This document shows positions 1,284-30,394 of a stretch of DNA of 64,000 nt, one piece after another; the stretch's first letter is position 1, and every line of letters begins with the position of its first letter. This stretch comes from Terriglobia bacterium. GTDB taxonomy: Bacteria; Acidobacteriota; Terriglobia; UBA7540. The translations under genes were made by a program, and so were the position numbers. The stretch covers positions 1,073 through 65,072 of the forward strand of contig DASUKV010000083.1 in the NCBI GenBank assembly GCA_036278555.1, read 5' to 3'. A model generated the notes under the pieces. It searched no databases. It saw only the letters and a program-made list of their open reading frames with translations, and was not told the origin of the DNA.

Positions 1284-2724
1284 TGATCTCGAGCCGGGAA
1301 AGACTGAGCACGAGAGCGAAGCGGGACGTGATCCATCCGTCGTCGGGGACGTTGAGCTTGAAACCAACGAACCCATGGACGAGGAAGATGCTGTGAAACC
1401 CGGCTTACTCCATGCGTTCCGTCGCAGTTTCGAGCGAGGCTGGCAGGCGCAGCGAGATCCGAAAAAGGACAAGAGCAGCCGTCAAGAGCTACGCAAGGAC
1501 AAAACAAAATCCCTGCTTGCGCTGGCGGGATTTGCTGGCGCGATGATCTTGATGTTTGTTCTCGTCTTCTCCTCACCCTCAAAGACGCCACGGATCAACC
1601 AACGCCCGCCCGGGACTCCCGACCTCGGCCGGCGAGTGACGCCAGGACAGCAAGCCGGGTCGCAGGAAAACGTTACGCCGCTGATGACTGTCAAGCCAGC
1701 GAGCGGGGAGACCGCAAATAACAACTTATCCACCCCGCAGGATGTGGCGCTCACGGCAACGCCAGCCCCAAGTAGCACGACTCCGCAAAGCGCGCCTCCT
1801 TCCACAGGCGCGCCCTTCAAACATACGCTCGCTCAGATTGACTTTCAGGATCAGGCTTTAGAGCAGCAATACGCTATGCATGGTACGAATCCTCCGGTGG
1901 CGAGCGCGACCGCGCCGGTTGAAAAGACCGATGACTTGAAAACGGCTTCGCTGGTTTTTGTACATGCTCGGGAGCAAGCGACAAAGGCTCGGACGTTCGA
2001 GTCAGCCGTCGAAGAGAGCGCGGTGATGGATTTACTGCCGGTCGGGACGCATCTGGTAGCGCGCCTGGAAGCTCCGGTGTCGACGGCGCTTACCGCACCT
2101 GTTGTTGCGGTGATTGAATACAACTACGAGCAAGACGGAGAAATCATTCTTGCTGCAGGAACGCAGGTCATCGGGAAACTTCGGGGAGCGACCCCGCAGG
2201 GGTACGTTTCGCTCGATTTTAACGAGTTGGAGTTTTCGGATGGAACCACGCAGAAGATTGCGGCCGACGCGATGGGGCTTGACTACAAGCCCCTGAAGGG
2301 GCATGTCACGGGGCGCAACCGCGGGCTGAGGTTCCTGGTGCAATCTCTGACCGGAGTGGGCGAGGTTGCGGCTTACATGGTGGGCGGCAGTCCCGGGAGC
2401 ACGAGCGTGTTTTCGGAAGACGCGCTGTTGCGGGAGCAGTTGGCGGCGAATATGGCGATGGCGGGCCAGCAACAATTCAATCAGCTTGCCATGACTCAGC
2501 ACATTGTGGTGACGGTGCCGGGGAACACGCGGTTCTATCTCGTTCTCGAGCAAGGTGCAACGCCCAAAAGCGCGTCCGCGACCCTCCGTCCGGTCTTGAA
2601 TCCCTCGGGCCTGCCGAACAAGCAGGAGTTGATGGAATTAATGGAGCTAAAGCGGGAACTCGCGGCAGCAGCCCAATCAGCGGGCGGCACCTCGGGCAAC
2701 GCTGTCGCGGCTTCTCGGCCTTGA
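1264..2724 (+). CDS. virB10: VirB10/TrbI-family T4SS protein
   Basis: Single TM helix, Pro-rich linker, C-terminal 'LPVGTHLVARLEAPVST...PVVAVIE...AGTQVIG' TrbI domain. Confidence 0.8.
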   Translation: MNEQKNSDLEPGKTEHESEAGRDPSVVGDVELETNEPMDEEDAVKPGLLHAFRRSFERGWQAQRDPKKDKSSRQELRKDKTKSLLALAGFAGAMILMFVLVFSSPSKTPRINQRPPGTPDLGRRVTPGQQAGSQENVTPLMTVKPASGETANNNLSTPQDVALTATPAPSSTTPQSAPPSTGAPFKHTLAQIDFQDQALEQQYAMHGTNPPVASATAPVEKTDDLKTASLVFVHAREQATKARTFESAVEESAVMDLLPVGTHLVARLEAPVSTALTAPVVAVIEYNYEQDGEIILAAGTQVIGKLRGATPQGYVSLDFNELEFSDGTTQKIAADAMGLDYKPLKGHVTGRNRGLRFLVQSLTGVGEVAAYMVGGSPGSTSVFSEDALLREQLAANMAMAGQQQFNQLAMTQHIVVTVPGNTRFYLVLEQGATPKSASATLRPVLNPSGLPNKQELMELMELKRELAAAAQSAGGTSGNAVAASRP

Positions 2725-5614: not shown

Positions 5615-5757
5615 CAAAACTGACAGGAACAGGAACTCCCGCATACGGTGTTGCGGGAATTCGGCCGGCGAGGCCGCGCGGAGCCAAGGTTTGAAGCTGC
5701 CAGGAACCGCGCGGCTGTCGGCCGGAAGTTGAATGGCTTTTGAGGCAATGAAACACG

Positions 5758-6414: not shown

Positions 6415-6424
6415 GGAGGAGTGA

Positions 6425-6918: not shown

Positions 6919-7263
6919 ATGCCGCTTGAGGTAACGAGAGTACAGAGAAACTTGCGGATGAGAGTGCGTTTCTTTGGGCTTGAGGCGGAAGACATCTTCG
7001 TGCTGCTCGCAGTTGCGATAGCCGGACAGTTCCTGGGGCATCTCGTCAACCGCGACCTCGCGGGCTTGCCCATGTCGATCGTACTCGAGTGGGGTGTGCC
7101 GGTCCTGGCGATTCCGGGACTCATGCTCTTCAAATATGGGAAGCAGAGGCACTACTTTTCGGATTTCATCGCCTACCGCTCGAAGCCCCATGTCTACTCG
7201 GCGCACGAGGCGGATACATGGCTTACGCGGCCTTATCTAAAGGAGGACGAACCGTGGCGGTGA
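6919..7263 (+). CDS. VirB3-like membrane protein
   Basis: 114 aa with 2 TM segments and an 'FFGLE' motif; overlaps the virB4 start. Confidence 0.6.
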   Translation: MPLEVTRVQRNLRMRVRFFGLEAEDIFVLLAVAIAGQFLGHLVNRDLAGLPMSIVLEWGVPVLAIPGLMLFKYGKQRHYFSDFIAYRSKPHVYSAHEADTWLTRPYLKEDEPWR

Positions 7264-9899
7264 CGCTTGAGACCTACCACAGATCGCTTAAAGCCCCGGC
7301 GCTCGCTGAGCAGCTTAAGATCCGCGACCTTCTGGATGACGTGGCGATCCAGCTCGATGGATCGTTTGTGGCGGGCTACGAGCTTTCAGGGCTGAATTCC
7401 TATTATGCGAGCGACGACCAGCGAAACCGCACAAAGGGGCGATTGGAGGCGCTGGTGCGTTCGTTGCCAGAGCGCTCGATGCAGATGCAAGTGCGGTTCG
7501 AGATCGCCGAAGGTACAGGCGGCGTTATCGACCGCTACAAGGATGAGAACCGGAACGAGAGCCCCATCCTCCAGGCGCTCGACCGCGACCGGATGGCCGT
7601 CTGGCGCGAGCGAGACAGGGCCGGGTACTACCTGCGGCATTTTCTCCACGCCTACTTCATCTGGGATTCGAGGCTACACCATCAGCAGCGGGACTCAGAT
7701 TGGAGCCACCGGACGAGCTACAACCTGTCCGCAAAAAAGTGTATTGAGCGGGGCAGGCAGGAACACGAAGACCTGCTGGCTGGATTCAATAGCTTGCTCG
7801 CGGGAGTCGAGGCGACGCTCTATGCCGGTGGGATGGGAGCGCGCCGGATGACCCACAACGATATCTTTCTCGAAATCAAGCGGGCGTTGAACCCTTTGGT
7901 TGACGACGCGCACCCCTACCGGGAGCCAGAGCTGTCGTTGTTCCCCGAAAGCGCTCGCAGCCAGATGGCGAACGTCAACGTCGAGGATGAGACGGACGAC
8001 TACCTGAAAATCGGAGGCCTGCTCTATTCCTGGGTGACGCTGAAGGACCTGCCGGATGGGACGTTTCCAGGCGTCCTGCGGGAACTGGCAGTCATGGATT
8101 TTCCGATCGTGGTGAACGCCCAGGTGGGGCTGCCCGACCATGCTCAGGCCGTGAAGCGTTGCAAGAAGCAGTTGAGGAAGATGACGGCAGCGCAACGGGA
8201 TATTCATGGCGGCTTCCGGCTGGACATGGACGCTCAGGTCGCGCAGGGGGAGCTCATGCAGGTGCTGAACGACCTGATTTCAAGCTCGCTGCGCGCCTGC
8301 TCGGTGAGCGTGATTGTGGGTGTGAGGACTTCGCGGCCGGCGCGGAACCGCCTGGAGATGGAAGAGGCCGAACGGCAGCTCTCGGATCGCCGGCAGCGGG
8401 TGCTCCATGCGATGGCCCGGATGAACGGCGCGCGCGGCATCGTCGAAGACGCCGCGAAGAAGCGGCTGTTCTTCTCGGGCCTTCCGGCGATGGCTGACCA
8501 CGAAAACTTCCGCGAGCACGACGCGCTGACGCTCCACGCGGCGGATCTGGTCCCGGTTGAGGTTCCGTGGCAGGGAACGCCGAACTCGCCCTTGCTGCTG
8601 CTCGAGACGCCTTACCGGCAGTTGATTCCGTTCTCTCCGTTCGACGCGAACCTGAGCGACGCCAATGTCTTGATTGTTGGGGGGAGCGGCAGCGGCAAGA
8701 CGTTTATGGCCCAGCAATTTCTCCTGATGTGCGCGCGGGCGAATTCGCTGGTTTCAATTCTGGAATGTGGCGACTCCTACGAGCCGCTGGTCCGATTGTG
8801 CGGCGGGCGAGTGATCACGGTTGACCTCGAAGGAAGCGAGACGCTGAATCCGTGGGACTTGCCCCTTGGGGGGACCGAGCCCACCCGGGAGAAGATATCG
8901 TTTCTCAAGAGCCTGGCGCGGCACATGATTGGCGAGACTCCAGGCTCGGACACTTCGCTTCTGGACAGCGTGCTCACGGACGCGATTGCGAGGACTTACA
9001 AACGCAGGGCGGCGCAGTTGTCGAGTCCGATTCCCACGTTCGCGGACTTGAGGGACGAGCTCGCGCAATGGCGGGATGAGGAGCGCAACGAGCGGGCGAT
9101 GGACGAGGCACGCCTGACGGCGCTGAAGCTGCGGCACTGGACGGGTGAAAAGGGGATTTATTCCAAACTCTTCGACGCCCCGACGACGATGCGTCTTGAT
9201 AGCAATTGGCTCTTCTTTAATGTCGAGAAATTTGCTTCCGACCCGAGGCTCGAAACCGCGATGAGCATGATCATCGCGAACGCGGTCTCGGAGCGCGCCG
9301 GCGGCAAGACAGGACAGCCTTCGATTACTGTGCTCGATGAGTGCTGGTTTCTGCTGGACTCGCCGGCGCTTGCGCCCGAAGTGGTGCAACTCTTCCGCAC
9401 CGCCCGGAAGCGCAACTCGAGCGTATGGGGGATCAGCCAGGCGGTGGAGGATTTTGTGGGGACTGAGACGGCGCCGCGGCCGCATGGACCCGGAATCCTC
9501 AAGAACTCGAGCACCAAGATTATAGGCAAGCAGCCGGGGTCGGCAGCGCCGCTCGCCGAGCACCTATCGCTGAACGCGACGGCGATCGGCGAGATCAAGC
9601 AGTTTGGCCCGCCGCGCAAGGGCCAGGGCGGAGAGGCGTTGCTCGTTCTGGGAGAGAAGGCCGAGACGACGCAGACAATCCGGATTGTGCCGACACCCGC
9701 CGACTATTGGGTGGCGACGACTTTCCCGCGCGAACGCAGATACCGACACTGGTATCTGCGTTCGCATGAGGGGCGCCCACAACTCGAGCTTTACCAGGAT
9801 TTGGGGGCGAAGTTCCCACAGGGCCTCGCGGATGCGCCGCCGATTGCAGAAGAGATCTCGGGCGCGGTGGACGAGGCTTGGGCTGAGAAAGCGAGGTAA
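7254..9899 (+). CDS. virB4: VirB4 T4SS ATPase
   Basis: Walker A GGSGSGKT, Walker B VLDECW, 'FRTARKRNSSVWGISQ'. Probable GTG start at 7254 after AAGGAGG. Confidence 0.92.
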   Translation: MAVTLETYHRSLKAPALAEQLKIRDLLDDVAIQLDGSFVAGYELSGLNSYYASDDQRNRTKGRLEALVRSLPERSMQMQVRFEIAEGTGGVIDRYKDENRNESPILQALDRDRMAVWRERDRAGYYLRHFLHAYFIWDSRLHHQQRDSDWSHRTSYNLSAKKCIERGRQEHEDLLAGFNSLLAGVEATLYAGGMGARRMTHNDIFLEIKRALNPLVDDAHPYREPELSLFPESARSQMANVNVEDETDDYLKIGGLLYSWVTLKDLPDGTFPGVLRELAVMDFPIVVNAQVGLPDHAQAVKRCKKQLRKMTAAQRDIHGGFRLDMDAQVAQGELMQVLNDLISSSLRACSVSVIVGVRTSRPARNRLEMEEAERQLSDRRQRVLHAMARMNGARGIVEDAAKKRLFFSGLPAMADHENFREHDALTLHAADLVPVEVPWQGTPNSPLLLLETPYRQLIPFSPFDANLSDANVLIVGGSGSGKTFMAQQFLLMCARANSLVSILECGDSYEPLVRLCGGRVITVDLEGSETLNPWDLPLGGTEPTREKISFLKSLARHMIGETPGSDTSLLDSVLTDAIARTYKRRAAQLSSPIPTFADLRDELAQWRDEERNERAMDEARLTALKLRHWTGEKGIYSKLFDAPTTMRLDSNWLFFNVEKFASDPRLETAMSMIIANAVSERAGGKTGQPSITVLDECWFLLDSPALAPEVVQLFRTARKRNSSVWGISQAVEDFVGTETAPRPHGPGILKNSSTKIIGKQPGSAAPLAEHLSLNATAIGEIKQFGPPRKGQGGEALLVLGEKAETTQTIRIVPTPADYWVATTFPRERRYRHWYLRSHEGRPQLELYQDLGAKFPQGLADAPPIAEEISGAVDEAWAEKAR

Positions 9900-10718: not shown

Positions 10719-10734
10719 GCGCGAAGGAGAAACG

Positions 10735-11562: not shown

Positions 11563-12780
11563 ATGTATTACCAGACGTTATTTAACGGTGCGCTCGCGGG
11601 TGTCAACAGTTCGGGCCTGATGCCGGGAATTATCAAGATCGCGTCGGTGATCCTAATAATCAGCCTGCTGTATTCCGTCTACACCGCCTACACAGCGGGC
11701 GGCGATGTCAGGATCCTGGGAACAGCGGCGATCAAGTACCTGATCCTGGGCTTGGTGTTAGTGAACTATGCGGCAGCATTCGGGGACGTCAACAACATGT
11801 TCAACGGCGTGGCCAATTATATCGTGCACACAGGGCCGGGGATTAGGGATGTGTTTGAATCGTGGGGGCAACAGATCGCCCTGTACTGGCATAACTCACA
11901 CGGAGTTCTTGGAGTCCTTTCTTTTATTTACCACTTAGCAGGAAACGCCGCCGCCGGATTTACAGGCGCGATCCTGGTTGTCGTCGCTTTCCTTCTTTAC
12001 CGCATTGCGTACTTGTTGTTCGCGCTCTTCTACACGGTCTACGGGGCCATCCTTTACGTGTGCGGGCCGTTTGTGCTGGCGCTGATGCCGGCGACAGGGA
12101 TCGGGCAGATCAGCCGCACGTATCTGATCAACCTCATGATCTTCAATGCGTGGGGGCTTATCTATGCGATTTTATCCGAACTGATCTATGCCCTGCACAT
12201 GAGCGACGTGAATACGGTGCTGAGCAACGGCAGTTATCTCAACCTCACGGTCACAAATCCGATGGTGATCTTGGGGGTGGCCAGCCTCCTTTACGCGATC
12301 ATGATTGCGTTGATCCCCTACATCGCAAGCCGGATTGTGCGCGGCGATGTGGGCGGGACTCTGCTGACCGTCGCCGGCGCTGCGTTGACAGCGGCGACGG
12401 TTGCGGCAAGCGCCGCGGGCGCCGCGTTGATGGGAACAGGCGGCGGGTGGTCGTATGGGTCTCAGATAGCAGGAGGTGGTGGAAGTCATGGGGGCGGCGG
12501 GGGTGGGGGCGGACAGGGTGGTGGAATCAGCGAAGGCGCAGGCGGCAGAAGCGTTGATGCTTCGCAAAGCTCGTCGTCCACTCCCCCTCCGCCGCCTGCA
12601 AGCAGTTCAGGTAACGGAGGGGGACGGCGTGGCATTCCGCCGCCCTGGCAGCCCGGCTACAACATGCCCGGTCACCGGCCTGCCTTCAACTTCACACACG
12701 CCGCGAGCTGGTATGGAGGATATGCCGCTCGGGCTGTATATAACCGCATGAAAGGGAGCAGTGGCGATGAACAATCCTAA
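11563..12780 (+). CDS. virB6: VirB6/TrbL polytopic membrane protein
   Basis: Multiple TM segments, 'ILYVCGPFVLALMP' motif, Gly/Ser-rich C-terminal tail typical of TrbL. Confidence 0.78.
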   Translation: MYYQTLFNGALAGVNSSGLMPGIIKIASVILIISLLYSVYTAYTAGGDVRILGTAAIKYLILGLVLVNYAAAFGDVNNMFNGVANYIVHTGPGIRDVFESWGQQIALYWHNSHGVLGVLSFIYHLAGNAAAGFTGAILVVVAFLLYRIAYLLFALFYTVYGAILYVCGPFVLALMPATGIGQISRTYLINLMIFNAWGLIYAILSELIYALHMSDVNTVLSNGSYLNLTVTNPMVILGVASLLYAIMIALIPYIASRIVRGDVGGTLLTVAGAALTAATVAASAAGAALMGTGGGWSYGSQIAGGGGSHGGGGGGGGQGGGISEGAGGRSVDASQSSSSTPPPPPASSSGNGGGRRGIPPPWQPGYNMPGHRPAFNFTHAASWYGGYAARAVYNRMKGSSGDEQS

Positions 12781-13516
12781 GTCGAAACCAACGAATCCGG
12801 AGATCGCGTCGTACACAAAATACTACGAGCATGACGGGCTCTTACGAGCCTATGCGAATCGCGCGTGGCTTGCCGCCATTCTCTTTGGTGTGATTGCGCT
12901 CGGGTCATTTGCCTTTGCGGCCTACGTCCGCATGCAGCCGCCGACAGTCATTCGCGTCGACAAGGATGGCAATGCAACGGTGGTGGGAGGAGCTCGCATG
13001 TTGCCCCCGCATTTTCCCTCGGCTTTTTCTGCCGGTGACGCGAAGGCTGCCGCGCCCACTGATCTTGAAGGCAAGGCGCTGGTTCGGCGGTTCCTCGACG
13101 ACTACCTCATCTACACGCCGGATTCGGTTGACCAGAACTTTTCCGCCGCGCTGAATGTGATGACCGCTAATCTGCGAACTTATACGCTCAACAAGCTCCG
13201 CACCCAGGACATCGTGGGAAAGATCCAGCAGGACCACATCATTTCGGACTTCCGCATCCGGTCGATTGAGCACGTCAAGAACACGCCGGGGACATACATG
13301 GTTTTTGGGGTGAATGAGGTCCACCGGCTCATGGAGGGGACGGAGACTACGGACCGGATTGTGGGGCAATACACAGTGCGGCTGGTCGAGACGGCACGAA
13401 GCGACATGAACCCGAGCGGGCTGTTGGTTGGAGAGTTCAATGCTCAGGAGATGATGGGCCAGCGGGACACGAGCTTAGACCAGCAGAGCGCTTTCGACCC
13501 GGGAGGAGGGAACTAA
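12767..13516 (+). CDS. virB8: VirB8/TrbF family protein
   Basis: Single TM, 'PTVIRVDKDG' motif, NTF2-like body, C-terminal 'NPSGLLVGEF'. Confidence 0.82.
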   Translation: MNNPKSKPTNPEIASYTKYYEHDGLLRAYANRAWLAAILFGVIALGSFAFAAYVRMQPPTVIRVDKDGNATVVGGARMLPPHFPSAFSAGDAKAAAPTDLEGKALVRRFLDDYLIYTPDSVDQNFSAALNVMTANLRTYTLNKLRTQDIVGKIQQDHIISDFRIRSIEHVKNTPGTYMVFGVNEVHRLMEGTETTDRIVGQYTVRLVETARSDMNPSGLLVGEFNAQEMMGQRDTSLDQQSAFDPGGGN

Positions 13517-13662: not shown

Positions 13663-13980
13663 ATGCCTGCTGAAGTTGCGGTAGCGGAACCCAAGGGACC
13701 ACAAACGGCTGTTCAACATCCCGCCCGGCGACGCCCTGCGCAAGCGGAACCCGAGGGTGAGGTTGCGGTGCGATACTTTCTGGCTGGGAAGGAGATGAAT
13801 GGAGGAAGCCCCTCGCTTGGCCGCGAGCTTTCGAGCGAAAACGATGCGCTGGTTGAATCTCTCAAGACAGGAGTCAATTTCTACGCGGTGTCGGAGTACC
13901 GGGCGGCGCCCGACATGAGCGGCAAGGCGCCGTTGATCAGAAAAGAGGCGGTAAAGAAAGCAGTGAAGAGTGACAAGTGA
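13663..13980 (+). CDS. Hypothetical protein
   Basis: ATG after AGGAG/AAGGA; coherent 105-aa ORF. Confidence 0.6.
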   Translation: MPAEVAVAEPKGPQTAVQHPARRRPAQAEPEGEVAVRYFLAGKEMNGGSPSLGRELSSENDALVESLKTGVNFYAVSEYRAAPDMSGKAPLIRKEAVKKAVKSDK

Positions 13981-14071
13981 CGAAAGCAGTGACAAGTGAC
14001 GAGTGATGAGCAAGCAACATCGGCAACCCATCGCTTTTTGCTTGTCACTTGTCATTCGTCACTCGTCACTT
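13962..14071. repeat. Inverted array of 7-bp tandem repeats (AGTGACR)n forming a hairpin
   Basis: agtgacaagtgacgagtgatgagcaagcaa (13988-14017) is imperfectly complementary to ttgcttgtcacttgtcattcgtcactcgtcact (14038-14070). Confidence 0.8.
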
Positions 14072-14238
14072 AGGCTTTATAAATCATGAAGCGTTCCGCA
14101 GGCTCTTAACTGTGGATGAGTTGTAACAGGCGGCTTCGGGAGAGTTCCGAGCCGGAAACGCAATCTCCGGTCCGGAAAGCAGAAGCCGCTACGAGCGGAC
14201 TCCTTCTTTCCGGGCTTTAACGACCGAGAGGAGGAGCA

Positions 14239-14421
14239 ATGAATCGAGTCGCGATCGTTGTCGTGGCGGTGATCTCGTTATGGACCGGATCGATGATTGA
14301 TCCGGAGAAACTCGAGTACCTGATTGTTGGAGCGATCTTCACTCTGGCAATCGAAGGACTGGTAAGACTCATGATCGGGGTGGCGCGGAAGGTCGTGAGA
14401 CCTAAAGTTCACCACGTCTGA
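14239..14421 (+). CDS. Small two-TM membrane protein
   Basis: Strong RBS GAGGAGG; hydrophobic 60-aa ORF. Confidence 0.6.
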   Translation: MNRVAIVVVAVISLWTGSMIDPEKLEYLIVGAIFTLAIEGLVRLMIGVARKVVRPKVHHV

Positions 14422-14553
14422 TAACTGAATAATGGCCCGGTCGCATCGCTTGACCCGGCCGAAAACGAAACCTTTTCGGCACGGACGAGCGATGAGACCG
14501 CATGCGGCCTCCCCTCCGTCCGTGCCGCCATACACAGAAAAGGAGAAGAGGCC

Positions 14554-17196
14554 ATGCCACAAAATGAGAAAAAGAACGTTCTGCCCGTGCTGCAGCTCGA
14601 AATTGAGCGGACGGGCAAGCTGAAAGAAAAGGTGCTTGACTTGCAAGTGACCATTTCCAATACGCTGCTCGAAGCGCTCTATCCGGGAATTAAGGTGGCT
14701 ACGGTGGACCTTCCCCGGGAACCTCTGAGCGACTACGAAAAGTCTCAGGTCGTGCAGGCGCTGGCGCATCTGGAGTTCGGTGGGATGCGCTATGCCTTGG
14801 TGGGAGCTTCGAGCTCGGCCAAGGACGGGAAATTCTACGCGGTGGAGCAATGTTATGAAAAGGCCATCCGCGAGCGCTTCCAGGCGACTGCTGAGTCTGC
14901 CGTAGTGTATTTCGGCATTCTCGTCGGACCCTGCAAGTCCCTGATCCAGGTTCCCGAGTGCCGCGTCCTGGTGGTTCGGGACTCGGAGCTTGGGACGAAT
15001 GACTGCCGGGGATGGATTAAGCGGTCGTTGTTTGACCGGCTGAATCTTCCAGGCGGGCGGTTCTATCAATTTCGCCTGGCGTTTGCGAAAACGCAGGCCA
15101 AGGGCAGCTTTAAGGTCATGGAAGATGATGTGGCGGAGCTCGTTGAAGCCGACATCATTCTTCCCACCTCTTCGGTCAAGCCCGAGTACCAGGGGCCGTC
15201 ACGCCTGTCGCGCTGGCTGCATGGGGACGCGCAGGTGTTCACCGGTCCGGTCGTGCTTGGCATCCGCGAAGTTTCCCGTGAGCTTGAGTTCGGGTCAAGT
15301 TACACCCTGCTCGAGCATGCGCCACGCGAATCGTTTGAGCAGGAGATCAAGCCGTTCACCGTGGACCAAGTCCGGAAACTGAAGCGGGGGGTCGAAGAGA
15401 ATGACCTGGAAGCACTCTTGAATCTCCTGGGTTCTTCCGAGGCGCAGCGCGAGGTTGAGAGCGGGATCGTCCACGACCCTGAGTACACCTCGGTTGAAAA
15501 CACGACCCTTGAAGCGGTCCTCAAAGCTGATGGCAGCGGGAGCATGATCTATTTCCCGTGGGTCAGGGATCAGCTTCAGCGGCGTCTCGCGGAGTGGGCG
15601 TTCAAGGCGACGACGGCGGGAGGGCTATCGTTCCCGGCGTTTGCGCTGGCCGATGATGGATTCCTCGTCGCGCACGCGGGCGAGGTCTATTGTTCTGCCG
15701 ACTGGATGCCGCGAGATTCCGCCTATACCCGGCTCATGTCCGAAAGGCTCCTCATCGTCCGCTATCCAATTCGGACGAAGGAGGATTTACTGCCCGTGAA
15801 AAATAAGGTGACGGGCGACATGGCGCCGTTGCTCCTGAAGCGGCTGCGGGATGCGGGCTGTCCCATGGCGGAGGGCGACATCATGGAAAAGATCCTGATG
15901 CGCCAGCTGCGGCTCGATGGGACGCTGGCCCTGCATTCCGAGACGGCGAAACGCAATGGAGGCGACTACGATTTTGACACGATTTGTGTGGTCGAGTCGG
16001 AACGCTTCCCCAGATTCGTCGAAGACCGCTTCAACTACCAGGAGCATTTCACCAACACAAAACAGAAATTGCCTAAGAAGAAGAGCGCCTGGTTTACGTT
16101 AGCGGCCGTCGCGCTCGATGCGATGGGCAATTCGATTGGGTCAATCACAACGCTCAAGACGCGGTGTCTGGCGGCGGGGCGCGTGGAGCTTGCCGAGAAG
16201 CTGGCGGTCGAGCTTCAGGCGGCGCTCGATCAACTGAAGCACGGGACTCGCCCGAACTTCAAGCTGATCAAAGCCGTCCGCGATGAGGTTTCAGGCGCGG
16301 CGTGGCTGAAGGCGAAGGAAGCGCAGCGCGTCTCGGAGCTTCCGATGGGTGTTGAGGCGCCTGCGACGGACGTGATTGGCCAACTCTATAACGCCGTCCG
16401 TCCGGAGATTGAAGAACTCTTCACTCAGGCCAAACGCATTCGTGACTATCGCGGGTTGGTTGCTTATGGCACCTATCCCGAGCGAATGTTCACGGAAGCA
16501 CACAAACTCTGCCGCATGTATGCGCAGCGGCTCGGCGAAATCCACGAGAAGCGCAAAGTTCTGGAGAAGGCTGTCGAGGAAGCAACCATGGCGCTTGAAG
16601 GCTGGAAGGAGCAGGACGGCCCGCAGGCAAAGTGGAACCTGACTTTTCGGCTCAACCAGGCAAAAAGCGCTCTCCACCACTGGGAGAAGGACCGCAAAGA
16701 ACTCAAAGCAGTCATCTCTCACATTCAGAAATGGGGTCGCAGCCGGAAGGGAGACCGAAGGTTGTGGCTTCAGGCGCTGTTTGATGCGGCAGCATCGGGC
16801 GACGGGAACGGATCGGTCGTCTTCTACGCCTTGCCCCAGGAGATGGTCAACGCCATCTCGGAACGGACAGGGGGAAGACCGATCGCTGTGGCGCTTCCTG
16901 ATCTCGCTGACGGAGAGGTTGAGATTGACGAGGATGGACGTGTTTATCTCATCTCGCCGAGCCTCGACGGGAAGCCGTACCAACGGTTGCTGTTCCAGGG
17001 CCAGGTGGCTCCGGATGGCAAAGTGCTGGCCCACCCGAACGGCAACGGCCAGTGTGCTGTCGTCAAAGAAGTGCATCCATTTCCCCTTGCGCCTGGGCGA
17101 GGGGAGGCACGGAACGGGAAAGTAGTCTTTCCCAACATCGTCCAACGTCCCCAGGTGCATGTTAATTCGTCCCGGCTCCAAGCCAAAGGCGCTTGA
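14554..17196 (+). CDS. Putative single-subunit two-barrel RNA polymerase (cellular RdRP / YonO-like)
   Basis: Motifs in RdRP order: TNDCRGWI (~DG.G.I), FYQFR...AKG (~FQ.R...KG), IVRYP (~RxP), NGGDYDFD (~GGDxDGD; nt 15964-15978), NSIGSIT (~lG.I.N), AALDQLKHG (~AVD..K.G). RBS AAGGAG. Confidence 0.75.
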   Translation: MPQNEKKNVLPVLQLEIERTGKLKEKVLDLQVTISNTLLEALYPGIKVATVDLPREPLSDYEKSQVVQALAHLEFGGMRYALVGASSSAKDGKFYAVEQCYEKAIRERFQATAESAVVYFGILVGPCKSLIQVPECRVLVVRDSELGTNDCRGWIKRSLFDRLNLPGGRFYQFRLAFAKTQAKGSFKVMEDDVAELVEADIILPTSSVKPEYQGPSRLSRWLHGDAQVFTGPVVLGIREVSRELEFGSSYTLLEHAPRESFEQEIKPFTVDQVRKLKRGVEENDLEALLNLLGSSEAQREVESGIVHDPEYTSVENTTLEAVLKADGSGSMIYFPWVRDQLQRRLAEWAFKATTAGGLSFPAFALADDGFLVAHAGEVYCSADWMPRDSAYTRLMSERLLIVRYPIRTKEDLLPVKNKVTGDMAPLLLKRLRDAGCPMAEGDIMEKILMRQLRLDGTLALHSETAKRNGGDYDFDTICVVESERFPRFVEDRFNYQEHFTNTKQKLPKKKSAWFTLAAVALDAMGNSIGSITTLKTRCLAAGRVELAEKLAVELQAALDQLKHGTRPNFKLIKAVRDEVSGAAWLKAKEAQRVSELPMGVEAPATDVIGQLYNAVRPEIEELFTQAKRIRDYRGLVAYGTYPERMFTEAHKLCRMYAQRLGEIHEKRKVLEKAVEEATMALEGWKEQDGPQAKWNLTFRLNQAKSALHHWEKDRKELKAVISHIQKWGRSRKGDRRLWLQALFDAAASGDGNGSVVFYALPQEMVNAISERTGGRPIAVALPDLADGEVEIDEDGRVYLISPSLDGKPYQRLLFQGQVAPDGKVLAHPNGNGQCAVVKEVHPFPLAPGRGEARNGKVVFPNIVQRPQVHVNSSRLQAKGA

Positions 17197-17240: not shown

Positions 17241-17275
17241 AACCCTGACGTTCTGCCGGGCAGTTGGAGGCCAAT

Positions 17276-18127
17276 ATGAAAGCGTTTCTGATCATTGTCG
17301 TGGTTCTCGCGCTCAGTCTGCCGCTATCGCTTTGGGCGCAAACTATTGAAACGCGCGCCTCGGGCGAGAGCCAGATCGTGCGCGTCCGAACCGCGCTCAA
17401 TCACCTTACGGTCATTCAACTCGCGGAGCCTGTCTTGTCGGTGGCGGCGGGAAGCGAAGCGTTCAAGGTTGAGTGGCGGGGCAACAAGGTGTTTGTCGAA
17501 CCGACAGAGGCAGGTGTCTCAACCAATCTCTTTATCTGGACAAAGTCAGGTCGCGAGAACTACGAGCTCGAACCGGCAGGCGCCGTCGCAAGCATGGACT
17601 TTGCGATTGACACCCCGGCGGCTGATCCTCCGCCAACGCCTAAACCGACGGCGAAAGTGAGAAGTTTTGGTGATCCGGTGAAGCTGGCCGCCGAGGCGAT
17701 GCTGGGAGGCACGCCCGTCCGGCAGGAGTGCTGGAAAGCACAGAAGCATCGCGTGCAGGTGTGCGTGCGCGACCTGTTTGAGCAGAAGGGCGAGCTCTAT
17801 GTCCGCTACTCGATTGAGAACGGAACGAAGAAAGTGTATCTCCCAGGAACGCCACAGGTCGTTCGGATTGAGCCAACCATTTCCGCTGCTGTGCTGGGAA
17901 GGCACGCCTACACGCAGTTGAGCGGCGAGGCGATGAAAAACCTGCGCGCTCACTCCGAAGCTTCGATGGCGGTTGTGGCGCACGAGGCGCGCACTGCAGC
18001 GGTCAAACCGGGCGAGGTATGCGTAGGGATGGTTGCCGTAAGACTGGATGGGCACACCCCGGCGGTCGTGAGGCTCGAATTCACGAACGAAGCCGGCCAT
18101 CCGGTTGCGGCCGAATTTGTGATGTAG
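17276..18127 (+). CDS. Second VirB9/TraK-like periplasmic T4SS protein
   Basis: Signal peptide; 'NHLTVIQLAEPVLSVAAGSEAFKVE...VFVEP...TNLFIWT' aligns by eye with 240..1283. Confidence 0.62.
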   Translation: MKAFLIIVVVLALSLPLSLWAQTIETRASGESQIVRVRTALNHLTVIQLAEPVLSVAAGSEAFKVEWRGNKVFVEPTEAGVSTNLFIWTKSGRENYELEPAGAVASMDFAIDTPAADPPPTPKPTAKVRSFGDPVKLAAEAMLGGTPVRQECWKAQKHRVQVCVRDLFEQKGELYVRYSIENGTKKVYLPGTPQVVRIEPTISAAVLGRHAYTQLSGEAMKNLRAHSEASMAVVAHEARTAAVKPGEVCVGMVAVRLDGHTPAVVRLEFTNEAGHPVAAEFVM

Positions 18128-19357: not shown

Positions 19358-19676
19358 TACAGCATCCCTGTTTGGAGCAACGCTCCTGGCAGTCGCAATC
19401 GAGTGCCCACTCCTGTGGTGGCTTTGGCACACGGTGCGATTTACGGCTGGTCCGGGCGCTTTTTACACCGGCGATTGGATGGGCCCGTTACTCCCCGAGG
19501 CCTGGCTCATCGGCGTTACCACTGCCATGATCCACCGTCTGGGACTTATGGTGTACGAGCGCGAGAAGATGCACATCCACCGCCGTCATTTCCGAAGGCT
19601 TGCGTACTCATTTATCGCGCTTGCTTCGGTCGAGGGGTGTCTCTTATGGATTCCACTGGCGCGGGTGATTCGATGA
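19341..19676 (+). CDS. Small 3-TM membrane protein
   Basis: ATG at 19341 after GGAGG; its stop overlaps the VirD4 ATG (ATGA). Confidence 0.55.
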   Translation: MRKKLDTASLFGATLLAVAIECPLLWWLWHTVRFTAGPGAFYTGDWMGPLLPEAWLIGVTTAMIHRLGLMVYEREKMHIHRRHFRRLAYSFIALASVEGCLLWIPLARVIR

Positions 19677-21466
19677 GAGCGCGCGAGGCGAATCAGGAAA
19701 CTGGCGTCTACGATGGCGCGTTTATCGTGGCTGCCGTTGGAGTAGCTCTCTTCATCGCCGTCTGGTACGTTGCCATCCACCGGTACCATCTCCTGGACAG
19801 CCAGTTCATCGAGGCACTCGGATATCTGGTTGTCCCGGCCACGGGCCTCGGGTGTCTAGCGTGGTTGATCCTCACGGGCCACTCGCGCCGCGAAAACGCC
19901 TGGCCGCACCCCTATCAGGTGATCTCTCCCAAAAAGGATGAACCCCTGGCGCGCGACGCCTGGAGAAAAGACGCAGTGGTGTTGGGTTATGACGTCCATG
20001 GCAAGCCGTGGCTGTGGCCCGACCGCATCCGGGTCATGCAGGGCCTGGTGCTCGGTTTGACGGGCATGGGGAAGACGACGCTCCTGAAGAACATCATTAC
20101 CCAGGACCTGATGCGGGTGATTGACACTCCTGAAGGGCCCAGGCGCATGCCGATCCTGATCCTGGACGGCAAGGGAGAGCGGAAGCTTTTCGAGGAGCTG
20201 CTGCCACACATCCACCACGCCGGGAGGCTCGGCGACCTGCGGGTCATCAATCCCTCCTGGCCTGACATCTCCGTCCGCTACAACCCCTTCCACTGCACCC
20301 AGGACGATTACATGCCGGTGGTGAACATGGTGTTTGGAAGCTTCAACCTGCATGACGAGTTCTTTGGCAAGCACCAGTTGAACTATCTGGCTGATATCGT
20401 GCGGGTACTGGTCTATACGGGGCACAAGTTCAACTTCTATGACGTCCTGGTGATGGCGATTGATCCGGAGGTGTTGCAGGAGCAGGTCGCAAAAGCGATC
20501 CACGAAACCACGCGCATGCCCAACATGACCCTGCAGCGGCGGCTGAACTTCGAGATGTCGGTCAAGAATCTGTACCAGTCCTTTCAGGACCGCGAACGGG
20601 TGCCAAAGATTCAGGGGTTGCTCAATGAGTGCATGACGTTCCTGGATGACGAGCTCTCGATTATCACCGGCCCTTACGAGGATCTGCTTTCGCTTGATGA
20701 GGTGATTGAGAAGGGGCTGATCCTGTTTCTCAGCCTGAACGTCAATAAGAACACCGAGCCGGTCAGAGCATTAGGCAAGATGCTTTTGCAAAACGTGCAG
20801 TTAGTCGTGGGCAGGCGGTACGAGGCTGACGACCCGCGCGCCGCCTGCCGACCAATGACTAGCATCATCCTGGATGAGTTTGCGCCGTTCGGCTACCAGA
20901 ACTTTGCTCACATCCTCCAGACTGCCCGCGGTACCAACACTTCGTTCCTGTTCTCCATGCAGAGTGTCCCGCAACTGCTGAAGGTCGGGCGCGGCTTCAA
21001 GGAAGATGTGACCTCGGCCGCCAACACCATCATTACTTTTAAGACGCATGACGAGACGACGGCAGACTTCTTCCTGCAGGCTTCGGCATTGCGCCCGGTG
21101 ACCAAGCGGACGCGGTCGGTGAGACGGGTGAAGTTCTTCGGGTATGAGAGGTATCGGGAGACGGGCGATGGAAGCGAGCGCGAAGATCTGGAGACGCGAG
21201 CGCTCGACTACCACATCAAGAACCTGCCGACAGGGCAGATCGAGTTGCTGATGACGGATGAGACGCAAGGCACTCTGCACACGACGCTGAGCGTTCGGCC
21301 TCCAGCGGACATTCGCGTGCCAGGCTTCGAACCGGAAGTCTTTCCGCGACTCACCGCGTCACGGGCCGAATCAAAGGATGGCGCGCACCTGCGGTTCAAG
21401 AATTTGGAGTTTGCGAGCCGGCACGGGCGGCGGGCAACTACCGGCTGGGGAGGGCGGGTGCAATGA
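19673..21466 (+). CDS. virD4: VirD4/TraD-like type IV coupling protein
   Basis: Two N-terminal TM helices, Walker A GLTGMGKT, 'ILDGKG', Walker B ILDEFA, 'QTARG...SMQSVPQL'. Confidence 0.9.
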   Translation: MRAREANQETGVYDGAFIVAAVGVALFIAVWYVAIHRYHLLDSQFIEALGYLVVPATGLGCLAWLILTGHSRRENAWPHPYQVISPKKDEPLARDAWRKDAVVLGYDVHGKPWLWPDRIRVMQGLVLGLTGMGKTTLLKNIITQDLMRVIDTPEGPRRMPILILDGKGERKLFEELLPHIHHAGRLGDLRVINPSWPDISVRYNPFHCTQDDYMPVVNMVFGSFNLHDEFFGKHQLNYLADIVRVLVYTGHKFNFYDVLVMAIDPEVLQEQVAKAIHETTRMPNMTLQRRLNFEMSVKNLYQSFQDRERVPKIQGLLNECMTFLDDELSIITGPYEDLLSLDEVIEKGLILFLSLNVNKNTEPVRALGKMLLQNVQLVVGRRYEADDPRAACRPMTSIILDEFAPFGYQNFAHILQTARGTNTSFLFSMQSVPQLLKVGRGFKEDVTSAANTIITFKTHDETTADFFLQASALRPVTKRTRSVRRVKFFGYERYRETGDGSEREDLETRALDYHIKNLPTGQIELLMTDETQGTLHTTLSVRPPADIRVPGFEPEVFPRLTASRAESKDGAHLRFKNLEFASRHGRRATTGWGGRVQ

Positions 21467-22251: not shown

Positions 22252-22808
22252 CAATCGTGTTGGTCGGCGTAACAGGTTTCGGCAGCGTATGGCGGCGAAG
22301 GTTCGGTAAGGACACCCATGACCCCGAACGCTTCCGGCGCGCGGCGTACTTTAACACGACCGGCATCATGATCGATGGCCGGGTGGTGCATCACCGCAAG
22401 ATTGCCGGGCATGTCAGGTTCAACGGTTTGGGCGGATTCAATCCTTACTATCCACAGCGCGCGGTGGGCGCCGTGTTCGAGTGCGATGAGCCGTGCGTAT
22501 GCAACGGACAGATCAAAGTGTTCTTCGGCCGCCGCCTCGCCCGACCGCAGCGGGCAGATTACTTTCTGGTGGTCATCCGGTCGGCAGAGTTCGGGCATGT
22601 GGATGTGGGAGCGCCAGCCTGGAAGTCCGATGGCTGCCTGCTCATTTCGTTCAGCGAGTATCATGACCAGCAGGAACTGATGCTGCTTGCGCCTCCGGAC
22701 GGATGGGTCAACATGAAGTCGGGACGCCTGGCATTACATTCTGACGTTGCGCGTCGCTGGAGCGCCAAGCTGCGTATCAGTGAAAGAGAAGACGGTGCGG
22801 TACTTTAA
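22248..22808 (+). CDS. Hypothetical protein
   Basis: GTGA-coupled to the upstream gene and overlapping the relaxase start. Confidence 0.6.
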   Translation: MTIVLVGVTGFGSVWRRRFGKDTHDPERFRRAAYFNTTGIMIDGRVVHHRKIAGHVRFNGLGGFNPYYPQRAVGAVFECDEPCVCNGQIKVFFGRRLARPQRADYFLVVIRSAEFGHVDVGAPAWKSDGCLLISFSEYHDQQELMLLAPPDGWVNMKSGRLALHSDVARRWSAKLRISEREDGAVL

Positions 22809-23559
22809 GGGTAGCATCAAGCTGAGTCTGGAGCACGACCATCCGATCCTGAACCAAACCCTCTACAGCGGCTTTGTCACTCAGGATCAGCTCTGGGAGT
22901 TTATGATGCGTGGTGGGCATGAGCTCAATCGCCGTTGTTTCAACTGGCGCGTCAAGCGGCTGGTCGACCACGGCTTCCTTAAGCGGCACGTTCTCTCGAA
23001 CGCCGCCCGTTCATTTGTGTACTCCCTGACTGAAGAGGGAGCCGAGGAGTTGGTGAACCTCCAAGAGTGCCATACCGCCGTGGTGGGATTTTACAATCGC
23101 AATGGCGATGGCGACCGGATGAGGCACGCGATCGATGTCAATGACATTCGGCTGACGCTGGCCCGGCGAGGCTTGCTCGCCGGATGGAAGTCCGATCTGG
23201 AAGTCAGATCGCAGAACGAGTTTACGAATTATGGATACGCCAAGGATTATGACGCGGTGGTTACTCTTCGCCTGGACGGGCAGGATGTACCGTTCGCTCT
23301 GGAGTACGAGCGGCAGGCCAAGGCGCGGGAACGGTATGTCGAGATCGCCGGTTTGATCCAGGGCGAGCGGCGTGTGAGCCGGTTCCTGTACCTGTTCCCG
23401 GAGTACCATCTGCTGTGGTTTGTGCATCAGTTTTTCCAGCACACGGACCGGAGGGTATATTTTGGAGTCTCGTGCGACTTCAAACGGGAGGTTATTTCAA
23501 CGCAGGTGGTTGACCCGGTGCTCCGGCACTACACCCTGGGCGAGGCGCTGCGCACATAG
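22795..23559 (+). CDS. MOB_C / Replic_Relax-type relaxase
   Basis: N-terminal wHTH-like region, 'RHAIDVND', and 'DAVV...ALEYERQAKARERY' matching the MOB_C D-xn-E-x-E-R-x2-K-x3-R-Y signature; downstream of VirD4. Confidence 0.78.
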   Translation: MRYFKGSIKLSLEHDHPILNQTLYSGFVTQDQLWEFMMRGGHELNRRCFNWRVKRLVDHGFLKRHVLSNAARSFVYSLTEEGAEELVNLQECHTAVVGFYNRNGDGDRMRHAIDVNDIRLTLARRGLLAGWKSDLEVRSQNEFTNYGYAKDYDAVVTLRLDGQDVPFALEYERQAKARERYVEIAGLIQGERRVSRFLYLFPEYHLLWFVHQFFQHTDRRVYFGVSCDFKREVISTQVVDPVLRHYTLGEALRT

Positions 23560-23699
23560 CCTTTGCCTTCCTCACTCCTTCCGCCGCTTTCCTCACACCT
23601 TGTACACTCCTTCCTCACGACTTCCCGACGGATCGTGTATCCCATTGAAATAGCTTATGTTGGCTTCTGACTACCCTCTGTTTTTGCTTCGGGAAGTCA

Positions 23700-28161: not shown

Positions 28162-28614
28162 ATGTTCGGCAAAATTACGTTGACCACAATACTGGAAATT
28201 CCGAAAGACGAACCCCTTGAATCGGCAGTAGCGAAACTGCTGGCGATAACCGACGGGGCTGAGATTGCCAGGTGGGTGCAGTTTCGGGCCGGGTTATTGG
28301 TTTTCGTCGTGGTGCCCGGTGACCCGGAGTCGGGAGCATTTTATCTCCTTGACCGTAAAACGGGCGCCTGGCACATGGTGGACTTCGAGGATGACAAATA
28401 CGGCGGCTACTCAGAAGCTGATTTCGAGTGCCTGATGAACGCCTGCCGGTTCGCGCGGCTGGTCGAGCGGCCGCAATTGCTCATAACCTGCCAGTGGCGG
28501 CTGGCTCCCGGCGCTGGTCCCGAGCTGCTTTGCACGCTGCCACGGAAGTTCGAGCGCCGGCACGAGAGATTCAACCACAAATTTAACTTGACAAGTTCTG
28601 CGGTTCAGGCATAG
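28162..28614 (+). CDS. Hypothetical protein
   Basis: Strong RBS AAGGAGG; 150-aa ORF. Confidence 0.65.
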   Translation: MFGKITLTTILEIPKDEPLESAVAKLLAITDGAEIARWVQFRAGLLVFVVVPGDPESGAFYLLDRKTGAWHMVDFEDDKYGGYSEADFECLMNACRFARLVERPQLLITCQWRLAPGAGPELLCTLPRKFERRHERFNHKFNLTSSAVQA

Positions 28615-28741
28615 AAAGAAGGTGGAGTTCCTGTTCCCTCCGTTTCACGCGCTGGCAGATTCTGACCGGCGCGATTCCTCTCTTTTGCTTTAACAATTCC
28701 CCCAACATCGCATGTGACCTTTTACCTCGCGGAGGTGCGTC

Positions 28742-29710
28742 ATGAGGATCGAAGCGAGCGCGGCCGTGGTGTCGGACTACGCGCGACTTTTCGTCAACCG
28801 GGGCACCTACACGGTGCAGTCATCGAAACCGCATCCGGAGAGCAGGCGGTACTACTACTATCGTCCGATGGAGAAGGCGATGGGCAAGGCGTTAAGCCTC
28901 ACCGTGGACACATTGCGGCGGCACCTGGAGGGCGAAATCACCATCGCCCTCTATGCGATCAACCCGGCAACCCAATGCTCGAAGTGGGTTGCCATTGATG
29001 CCGACTATAAGGACGCCATGGATGATCTGTTGAAAGTTCAGCGCGACCTCGAGCGGCAGAAGATCTACGCGGCGCTCGAAAAGAGCCGGCGGGGCGGACA
29101 TTTGTGGATTTTCTTCGCGGAGCCGCAACCAGCACGGGACGGCCGCATCCTGATCCATGATGTGGCATCGAGATTGAGCGTTCCGGTGAAAGGCAGCGGC
29201 GCGGTGGATGGGATCGAAGTTTTCCCAAAACAAGACCATGTGGCGAACGGCGAATTCGGGAACGCCATTCGGGGTCCTCTCGGTATGCATCGCGGCGCTC
29301 GGCAACGGTTCTGGTTCTACGGGGCGAACTATGAGCTGGTGAGCCAGATGTCGTATCTGAAACGCCTGCCGAAAGTGACCGGAGAGCAGTTGCAGCAACT
29401 GATCGCCGGGAAAGGGACACCAGAGGTAGTGGCCAGCCCTGAAGTGAAGGCGAGGTCCTTTGCTCCGCGGTCGAGCAGTGGGCATAAAGAGTTTCGGATC
29501 CTCGCTCACCTTTCCGGCAAGCTTCGGAAAGCCGGCCGGAATTACGTCACGCAGTGCCCATCGTGCGCAGCAGCGGGGCACGATCGGGCAGGCGATAACC
29601 TGGCGGTGCGGATCGATGACCCAACGTTCTACCAGTGTTGGGCTGGCTGCACGAAAGAGATGATTCGGGAAGCCCTGGGCTGCCCGATTCGCTACCGGCA
29701 ATCGGCTTAG
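28742..29710 (+). CDS. AEP-superfamily primase (TOTE-primase-like) with C-terminal Zn-binding domain
   Basis: 'WVAIDAD', 'EKSRRGGHLWIFF', 'EVFPKQD...GNAIRGPLG'; C-terminal CPSC...CWAGC. RBS GGAGG. Confidence 0.8.
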   Translation: MRIEASAAVVSDYARLFVNRGTYTVQSSKPHPESRRYYYYRPMEKAMGKALSLTVDTLRRHLEGEITIALYAINPATQCSKWVAIDADYKDAMDDLLKVQRDLERQKIYAALEKSRRGGHLWIFFAEPQPARDGRILIHDVASRLSVPVKGSGAVDGIEVFPKQDHVANGEFGNAIRGPLGMHRGARQRFWFYGANYELVSQMSYLKRLPKVTGEQLQQLIAGKGTPEVVASPEVKARSFAPRSSSGHKEFRILAHLSGKLRKAGRNYVTQCPSCAAAGHDRAGDNLAVRIDDPTFYQCWAGCTKEMIREALGCPIRYRQSA

Positions 29711-29722
29711 GAGGATGCTTCT

Positions 29723-30394
29723 ATGGCAAAGAATCCGAATTTCTTTGGCTTGGCGCTGCCCGAAGCAGCGCGGGAGAAGCTGCGGAAGGTAGGGATCTTT
29801 GTGCAAACCGTGGTGACGGTCGAGCACCAAAACCTGGCGCAGCGCTATGTGGTGCGCGGAGTCGAGTCGGGTGGAGCGGTGGATGGTTTTGGACACTACG
29901 TCACGTTCGCAGCGGAGGATGGTAGTCCGTTGCCTTATGTCTGCCGGGTTGAGTCGCTGGCGGTCAACGGGCCGCACGCCGTGGTGGTGGCGCCGGTTCT
30001 GCTGCGGGCCGAGATGTTGCGGGTGGGGCACACGTATGAGTTGCTCATCACGCGGCATCGGCCGGGCACGGTCACCAACGGCAAGAAGCCGCCGCTTGTG
30101 AGCGAGGTTGTGTTTCGGGGGGAGCACGGGCATCTGGCAGTGGGGGAGATGGGCCTGCCGAGATTCTGCTCGCGTGCTGGCGAGCCGGTAGAGCTGCCGA
30201 AGGGGTTGACCGGTCTTCTTTCTGGCACGGTGCTCGGGACACTATGCACGGCCTGTGACCATGCGCATTACGTGGTGCCTTGCGAAGGCACTGGACCGCG
30301 GGCCGGGAGTGGCCCCGGACCAGGGGATCGCACCTTCGAGGCGATGGATCATGCATCGCTGGGTGAAATGACTTCGCGGCAACCAAGCATTTAA
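29723..30394 (+). CDS. Hypothetical protein
   Basis: RBS AGGAGG; co-oriented with the primase. Confidence 0.65.
   Translation: MAKNPNFFGLALPEAAREKLRKVGIFVQTVVTVEHQNLAQRYVVRGVESGGAVDGFGHYVTFAAEDGSPLPYVCRVESLAVNGPHAVVVAPVLLRAEMLRVGHTYELLITRHRPGTVTNGKKPPLVSEVVFRGEHGHLAVGEMGLPRFCSRAGEPVELPKGLTGLLSGTVLGTLCTACDHAHYVVPCEGTGPRAGSGPGPGDRTFEAMDHASLGEMTSRQPSI

Follow-up and report, generated by a model that had tools for sequence, protein, structure and literature searches.

A predicted two-barrel RNA polymerase is a core transfer-block gene in a family of Acidobacteriota integrative and conjugative elements

Single-chain RNA polymerases with two barrels are already known from phages, plasmids and selfish elements (PMC2919709; PMC7824862; PMC3417536; like most of the sources below, these are cited for the accessible parts of their text). 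[quoted passage not shown] Two-barrel enzymes also serve RNA silencing, as QDE-1 of Neurospora and Thielavia and as RDR2 of plants, and QDE-1 initiates RNA synthesis de novo with ssDNA as template (PMC9508822). For bacterial selfish elements, single-subunit two-barrel proteins resembling RNA-dependent RNA polymerases (RdRPs) have been proposed to be primases, with REase and URI nucleases and RNase H named as partners and, in the accessible text, no type IV secretion system (T4SS) (PMC3417536). Priming and early expression in conjugation are ascribed to host RNA polymerase or to primases of the Toprim and archaeo-eukaryotic (AEP) kinds (PMC5512222 among other sources): the primases RP4 TraC and R64 SogL and the Frpo ssDNA promoters of the F plasmid prime or transcribe the transferred strand with Toprim or AEP folds or with host RNA polymerase and, as far as the accessible sources go, never with a two-barrel enzyme. 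Here we report that a 64,000-nucleotide window of a Terriglobia genome (Acidobacteriota; assembly GCA_036278555.1, contig DASUKV010000083.1) encodes a predicted two-barrel polymerase of 880 amino acids inside the T4SS genes of an integrative and conjugative element (ICE), and that this gene belongs to the core of a family of Acidobacteriota ICEs (Table 1). The window, meaning the whole stretch analysed, covers nearly the entire length of a 65,189-base contig, which carries no tRNA and whose first base already lies within the element.

The polymerase open reading frame (ORF) starts at an ATG directly preceded by AAGGAGAAGAGG, and the GC content around it (0.57–0.60) equals that of the rest of the window. 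The original prediction had singled out this frame by six motifs, all of which are present in the order that it gave: TNDCRGWI (residues 148–155), FYQFR followed by AKG (170–174 and 182–184), IVRYP (401–405), NGGDYDFD (468–475), NSIGSIT (526–532) and AALDQLKHG (556–564). An AlphaFold2 model built on a 134-row alignment (pLDDT 87.1, pTM 0.80) matched 28 PDB structures at E ≤ 0.001 in Foldseek, and the 21 that were listed are all two-barrel polymerases. QDE-1 was the best match (E = 6e-16, TM 0.50), followed by RDR2, gp64-type Thermus phage enzymes (9e-10), phi14:2 gp66 (1.7e-5) and gp96. Structure alignments with VIA-align gave Z 22.0 for maize RDR2 (609 residues aligned, rmsd 8.4 Å), Z 19.3 for QDE-1 (617 residues, 4.4 Å) and Z 19.4 for gp64 (520 residues, 7.0), spanning polymerase residues ~3–775. 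Viral structure models agree with a two-barrel fold, and the ESM Atlas cluster listed for the polymerase carries PF05183 on 39% of its members (score 0.95). The predicted fold is thus of the two-barrel QDE-1/RdRP type, as the original prediction had anticipated, with Z 18–22 over 520–620 residues.

The likeness lies in structure. A core of ~600 residues aligns with QDE-1 and RDR2 at 12–16% identity, and the P23-45 gp64-type structures (PDB 8f72 and 8f5m; Z 19.4 and 18.9) share 9–10%. The polymerase sequence had no match in Pfam, PHROGs, NCBIfam, PADLOC or PDB sequences, searched directly and with two profiles; it does not reach the gathering cutoff of PF05183, and 9 of 54 close homologs match that family at E ≤ 1 (best 8.8e-4). 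Unlike QDE-1 and RDR2, it has a C-terminal all-beta domain of ~100 residues beyond the aligned part; folded alone, this domain gave a best Z of 3.5 in a fold search. The tail that follows varies: in one Terriglobales subclade (L051, L056 and part of L059–L071) it is acidic and ends on a conserved W-V-M-like motif, and the tails of other members are basic.

Eight residues are invariant in two-barrel RNA polymerases, among them QDE-1 D709, R738, K743, R962 and P964 (PMC2919709). Candidates for all eight, which YonO also has, are kept in 130–134 of 134 homologs when equivalence to QDE-1 is assigned by motif order and context rather than by residue-level superposition. In the first barrel these are D150 (130/134), R174 (131/134) and K183 (132/134); R403 and P405 of the RxP motif are each kept in 134/134. 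The Asp triad of the predicted metal loop is conserved as the original prediction required, D471 in 132, D473 in 133 and D475 in 132 of the 134 sequences. QDE-1 R962 touches the 2′-OH (PMC9508822), and the invariant R403 therefore points to an RNA product. Loop position 474 departs from the canonical DxDGD glycine, being Phe in 120, Gly in 11 and Tyr in 2 of 134. The DFDID loop of phi14:2 gp66 had been invoked as precedent for such a change, and this holds: gp66 (Z 8.0 to our model) is active and depends on all three Asp, with its non-Gly loop crystallised in an inactive shape (10.1101/2020.03.07.982082). The protein is very probably an active RNA polymerase.

The family is large and under selection. 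Among 7995 scored candidates, 1357 were homologous at E ≤ 0.001, as were 595 cluster representatives, and at least 316 of 639 pattern-matched stretches of GTDB genomes encode a relative; the best 80 of these comprise 79 titled Acidobacteriota and 1 Acetobacteraceae. Even sampling of the host's class gave a match in 52 of 401 genomes, compared with 7 of 401 in a phylum-wide sample, every one of them in the host's class. Of 71 fully contained copies, 68 retain five motifs in an open frame of 780 codons or more. Estimates of dN/dS against two relatives were 0.137 and 0.124, similar to those of VirB8 (0.105 and 0.102); two VirB4 rows and one VirD4 row (L001) were dropped as likely alignment artefacts (values above 1.9 with tiny dS). 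The number of homologs, the dN/dS of 0.12–0.14 and the near-invariant motif residues together argue that the ORF is not a chance one. No phage relatives were found in PHROGs (searched with four family members), GenBank phages or IMG/VR (searched with patterns).

The polymerase occupies a fixed place among the transfer genes. Matches to PF04335, CagX, PF02534 and PF13814 bear out its position between virB8 and a block of a second virB9, virD4 and a relaxase gene; as a refinement, two small ORFs (105 and 60 amino acids) separate it from virB8. This synteny extends to the homologs, as had been suggested: in the 80 best loci, with each gene scored only where enough flank was present, VirB8 lies 5′ of the polymerase in 61/61 loci with at least 3 kb of flank, and the second VirB9 and VirD4 lie 3′ of it in 67/69 and 56/57. 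The reverse holds in the class sample, where 52 of 64 full or near-full matches to the family VirB8 are followed within 20 kb by a match to the polymerase, in some cases a partial or broken one (small VirB8 fragments and one divergent copy, C378, were set aside). The remaining 12 loci all reach a contig end within 7 kb, and none of these, as fetched, runs from VirB8 to VirB9 and VirD4 without a polymerase. Among the class-sample loci we found no intact element of the family that lacks it.

Phylogenies tell the same story. In trees of 33 loci with five complete genes, 20 of 26 supported polymerase splits are common with VirD4 and none conflicts, and distances correlate with those of VirB8 (0.90) and VirD4 (0.84) within the range of the T4SS genes among themselves (0.72–0.92). 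The polymerase is thus inherited like a structural tra gene and unlike exchangeable defence cargo. In three loci (L091, L101 and L102), insertions of 6–14 kb lie between virB8 and the 105-amino-acid ORF, which stays downstream; its adjacency to the polymerase in L101 and L102 despite the insertion suggests that the two travel as a sub-unit. The genome also encodes a second, related T4SS (L174; contig C378, 231–13432) in which VirB8, VirB9 and TrbI are contiguous, the relaxase is of the MOBH type (TraI_2) and there is no polymerase. This single case hints that the polymerase goes with the DNA-processing module; a search for close relatives of that T4SS in 400 other sampled genomes returned polymerase-type loci only.

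Genes for VirB4, the coupling protein, the relaxase and integrases all lie within the window. In two relatives (G376 and G524) the integrases adjoin tRNA-Ala, and in G376 a 64-nt att repeat (98% identity) recurs ~45 kb apart, which together indicate that the elements are ICEs; no att repeats were found within the ranges taken for G549, G541 and G524. The motif YGACTAY, mostly 70–140 nt beyond the relaxase stop and in some regions preceded by GCAA...TTGC arms, occurs on the + strand in 32 of 45 non-redundant regions and on the − strand in 2 (shuffles: mean 1.8, maximum 4), and is from its sequence conservation a plausible oriT core of this MOBC family. MOBC relaxases resemble restriction enzymes, and for CloDF13 MobC the accessible text describes no detected covalent intermediate (PMC6736028; PMC12857230), so that these elements may not process DNA as the F model describes.

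Beyond the relaxase, window positions 26668–58135 hold a replication and establishment cluster with RNase H, AEP primase, beta-clamp, SSB and ParB genes, a family B DNA polymerase with DUF72, and a Gp3-like recombination protein with two exonucleases; these genes vary mostly from element to element. In seven elements examined over 80–120 kb, the AEP cassette lies 3′ of the relaxase in six, an SSB homolog is present in four and RNase H in one. The complete 45-kb ICE of G376 keeps the polymerase; its remaining ORFs that were scanned are cargo, relaxase or unassigned, and tblastn found no AEP, SSB or RNase H in it, so that there is neither a separate leading-gene cluster nor another primase in view.

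The ~125 nt ahead of the polymerase start codon are conserved and strongly folded relative to shuffles (z = −7.5 in the window; mean −4.4, 32/33 loci below −2), compared with a mean of −1.2 (9/33 below −2) for the leader of a neighbouring gene. The predicted unpaired fraction of the Shine–Dalgarno (SD) sequence is 0.17 and rises to 0.37 on shuffling of the upstream part (the native value is the lower one in 25/33), a gap that the control leader does not show (0.52 against 0.56; 16/30). Removal of the first 40 nt raised mean SD accessibility from 0.17 to 0.38 across 67 leaders, as for a switch. RNAalifold, applied to a MAFFT alignment, retained one six-pair hairpin in which three pairs have double changes, and A-U to G-U changes in it favour the + strand. 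With a single covarying hairpin, the alignment lends weak support to a long-range switch, which draws on single-sequence folding. Under DNA parameters the z scores of the two strands lie close together (−4.4 and −4.0), which is compatible with a role of the leader as ssDNA. The idea that the leader is a repeated promoter for the polymerase was rejected, as each element has a single copy (the second-best match in the window has E = 0.15). The leader had no Rfam match (two chance-level matches across the window); a 12-mer that we take to be boxA-like was not enriched (4 matches against 3.3 expected), and scans for sigma-70 promoters and terminators stayed at chance level.

Relatives also occur outside T4SS regions. 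A sister clade of 25 proteins (HHalign probability 100, E = 5e-104 to the polymerase family), ~780 amino acids long and encoded on low-GC metagenome islands (L144–L171), has an invariant DxDGD loop and matches the Pfam RdRP family PF05183 in 17 of 23 members at E ≤ 0.1 (best 2.7e-10). None of the window's T4SS genes matched in 30 of its loci, and 56 ORFs from 11 loci, on contigs that are short, included resolvases, integrases, RadC (5), ArdC (2), DUF932 (2) and Mu Gam (2), with no T4SS family; the clade looks like a separate, undescribed mobile-element family. Six cyanobacterial plasmids encode proteins 22–25% identical to the polymerase, and the three that we opened have no annotated T4SS genes within up to 12 kb. 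The Pseudanabaena plasmids (L081–L083) carry a repeated block with a ~1500-amino-acid hypothetical protein, a Rho-N domain protein, methyltransferases and an SNF2-type helicase. These plasmid relatives and the marine-island ones may belong to the selfish-element RdRP-like group (PMC3417536). The relatives outside T4SS regions indicate a mobile-element enzyme family with one branch fixed in a transfer block.

By analogy, we propose—at a probability of about one half—that the polymerase uses the transfer intermediate as an ssDNA template for RNA, whose main purpose would be to prime the second strand. It would be made together with the transfer machine, at a low level because the leader seems to gate translation. 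The MOBC relaxase would nick YGACTAY behind its own gene and a single strand would be pumped out; the polymerase would then begin unprimed RNA synthesis on that strand, either in the donor or, if it passes the T4SS as the RP4 TraC and R64 Sog primases do, in the recipient. This RNA would prime synthesis of the complementary strand and might double as early mRNA. Were the + strand, which is the coding strand for most genes of the element, the one transferred, RNA copied from it could act as primer or antisense only; transfer of the − strand would allow for mRNA. The crAss virion enzyme suggests, by analogy, that Phe at the fourth loop position may keep the polymerase idle until it meets ssDNA.

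The proposal draws on the best fold matches, QDE-1 and RDR2, of which QDE-1 initiates de novo on ssDNA; on the position of the gene in mid-block, with the Mpf genes on one side and the coupling protein and relaxase genes on the other; and on its retention in the minimal G376 ICE. Primases are described as travelling with ssDNA in conjugative elements (PMC5512222), and a primase role has been proposed before for bacterial RdRP-like enzymes (PMC3417536). Several observations weigh against it. The promoter-directed transcriptase gp64 ties with QDE-1 by Z (19.4 against 19.3); the sister clade, with no T4SS gene in view, implies that the basic job of the family needs no adjoining T4SS; and Phe replaces Gly in 120 of 134 loops, the non-Gly loop of gp66 having an inactive shape in the crystal. 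The last 25 residues are net positive in 50 of 72 members and strongly acidic in 14, and such a tail, not uniformly basic, offers no clear translocation signal. With an AEP cassette in 6/7 elements a second priming enzyme looks redundant there, RNase H is nearby in only 1/7, and the oriT and the transferred strand are ones that we infer.

A possible but rather unlikely alternative is that the polymerase is a dsDNA transcriptase like SPbeta YonO or P23-45 gp64, which would transcribe the tra operon, of which its gene is a part, and so form a positive-feedback switch into the donor state that the SD-hiding leader keeps off. In this group, those phage enzymes that have been characterised are DNA-dependent transcriptases (PMC5467207; 10.1101/2022.12.01.518664), the gp64 Z of 19.4 fits, leader gating suits a switch, the G376 ICE keeps the polymerase with little beyond tra genes and cargo, and AEP already supplies priming in most elements. 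However, no 8-mer is common to more than 3 of 6 regions 5′ of the first tra gene (a small, divergent sample), the leader motif occurs singly per element and not ahead of several genes, and Foldseek E values are better for QDE-1 and RDR2 (1e-15) than for gp64 (1e-9). P23-45 gp64 is a pre-early gene whose product transcribes early and middle genes (10.1101/2022.12.01.518664), whereas the polymerase gene lies mid-block. By its ICE context and the absence of matches in the phage searches above, the polymerase falls outside the YonO-like phage enzymes.

Doubtful, too, is the idea of a conjugative counterpart of phage virion RNA polymerases, in which an ICE of this family would send its own RNA polymerase through the T4SS along with the ssDNA. 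The enzyme would then prime and transcribe the incoming strand in the recipient without host RNA polymerase, sigma factor or primase, and the non-Gly loop and SD-hiding leader would account for inactivity in the donor.

Very unlikely, in our view, is a regulatory or anti-defence role in which the enzyme, RNA-templated or dual, would yield antisense or double-stranded RNA in the manner of eukaryotic RdRPs. In its favour, RdRPs are the nearest solved folds, and the sister clade that matches the Pfam RdRP family adjoins ArdC and RadC genes; against this, neither the polymerase nor its 105-amino-acid neighbour had a PADLOC match, the window proteins scanned included no Argonaute, Dicer-like or RNase III family, and inheritance is that of a structural tra gene, not of exchangeable defence cargo. 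Least probable of all is that the polymerase fold is catalytically dead and now serves the transfer complex as a structural component or to bind nucleic acid: the Gly-to-Phe change would suit it, but homologs down to ~25% identity keep the three Asp, a fourth Asp, the RxP motif and the basic residues almost without exception, 11 members retain Gly, and gp66 is active without it.

Other parts of the transfer block accompany the features in Table 1. Two tandem 271-amino-acid paralogs 3′ of VirB4 (9903–11550; ~30–35% cross-matches in relatives) are conserved in the family without a Pfam match, as are short hydrophobic ORFs 5′ of VirB4 (5237–6877) across the ICE family; as a guess, these are possibly VirB5-like and VirB2-like, respectively. 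After the 105-amino-acid ORF, positions 13967–14072 form a long imperfect palindrome of GTGACAAGTGA-like repeats, for which Rfam gives a chance miRNA match only. For the 105-amino-acid protein, an ESM Atlas search gave unnamed clusters only, and a complex prediction with the polymerase scored 0.00, which is no answer and is not counted as evidence. The leader-like region of the 60-amino-acid ORF (14114–14421) has a weak likeness to the polymerase leader (nhmmer E = 0.15, fold z −2.4). The hydrophobic product of that ORF presumably recalls type I toxin genes.

Table 1 Positions of the polymerase gene and associated features in the window
Feature	Position	Strand	Basis
First VirB9-like and VirB10/TrbI-like genes	240..2724	+	TIGR02781 E 6e-5; TrbI matches in orthologs L123 and L119
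VirB4 ATPase	7089..9899	+	TIGR02746 E 6e-45; TIGR00929 E 3e-38
VirB8	12761..13516	+	PF04335 E 2e-9
Conserved 105-aa ORF	13663..13980	+	5′ of polymerase in 60/67 loci with at least 1.5 kb upstream
60-aa hydrophobic ORF with its own leader-like structure	14239..14421	+	Matched in 2/80 loci (L001, L042)
Conserved structured leader, predicted to hide the polymerase Shine–Dalgarno; alternative pairings free it	14429..14553	+	
Predicted single-chain two-barrel (QDE-1/RdRP-type) polymerase, 880 aa	14554..17196	+	Motifs, conservation, predicted fold
First-barrel residues D150, R174 and K183, putative equivalents of QDE-1 D709, R738 and K743	15001..15102	+	Conservation
R403-Y-P405, putative equivalent of QDE-1 R962/P964 (2′-OH contact, Pro gate)	15760..15768	+	
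D471-Y-D473-F-D475, predicted Mg-binding loop, Phe for the usual Gly	15964..15978	+	
C-terminal all-beta domain, residues ~770–872, past the QDE-1/RDR2-aligned part; variable tail	16861..17169	+	
Second VirB9-like gene, directly 3′ of polymerase	17264..18127	+	CagX E 8e-8
VirD4 coupling protein	19403..21466	+	PF02534 E 2e-8
MOBC-type (Replic_Relax) relaxase	22747..23559	+	PF13814 E 5e-6; NF041423 E 2e-12, under the NF041423 cutoff
YGACTAY motif just 3′ of relaxase, candidate oriT core	23668..23674	+	Strand-specific conservation
Three-gene cassette with archaeo-eukaryotic primase (AEP-TOTE family)	28162..30394	+	PF22548 E 2e-27
Tyrosine integrase genes, right end of window	60476..63974	−	PF00589

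The original prediction spoke of a new system. The context in a T4SS block does look new, and what does not stand is the novelty of the enzyme kind and of the primase role, both already proposed (PMC3417536, accessible part): this looks like a known kind of enzyme in an apparently new context. We found no report of a two-barrel polymerase inside a T4SS block in the full-text literature searched, which lacks most subscription papers as well as the primary paper of Iyer and Aravind and the bioRxiv supplements, and a 2025 T4SS review contains neither ‘RNA polymerase’ nor ‘Acidobacteri’. Where other conjugative elements are described as relying on host RNA polymerase or on Toprim and AEP primases, this Acidobacteria ICE family has a two-barrel RNA polymerase at a constant place among its transfer genes. 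Because the closest solved folds are QDE-1 and RDR2, the family is also relevant to the origin of the eukaryotic RNA-silencing polymerases. The finding opens up conjugation in Acidobacteria, about which a 2012 survey said that nothing was known (PMC3548315). Should the polymerase prove active, conjugation would gain a new enzymatic step, and the proposal of bacterial RdRP-like primases in selfish elements (PMC3417536) would become directly testable.

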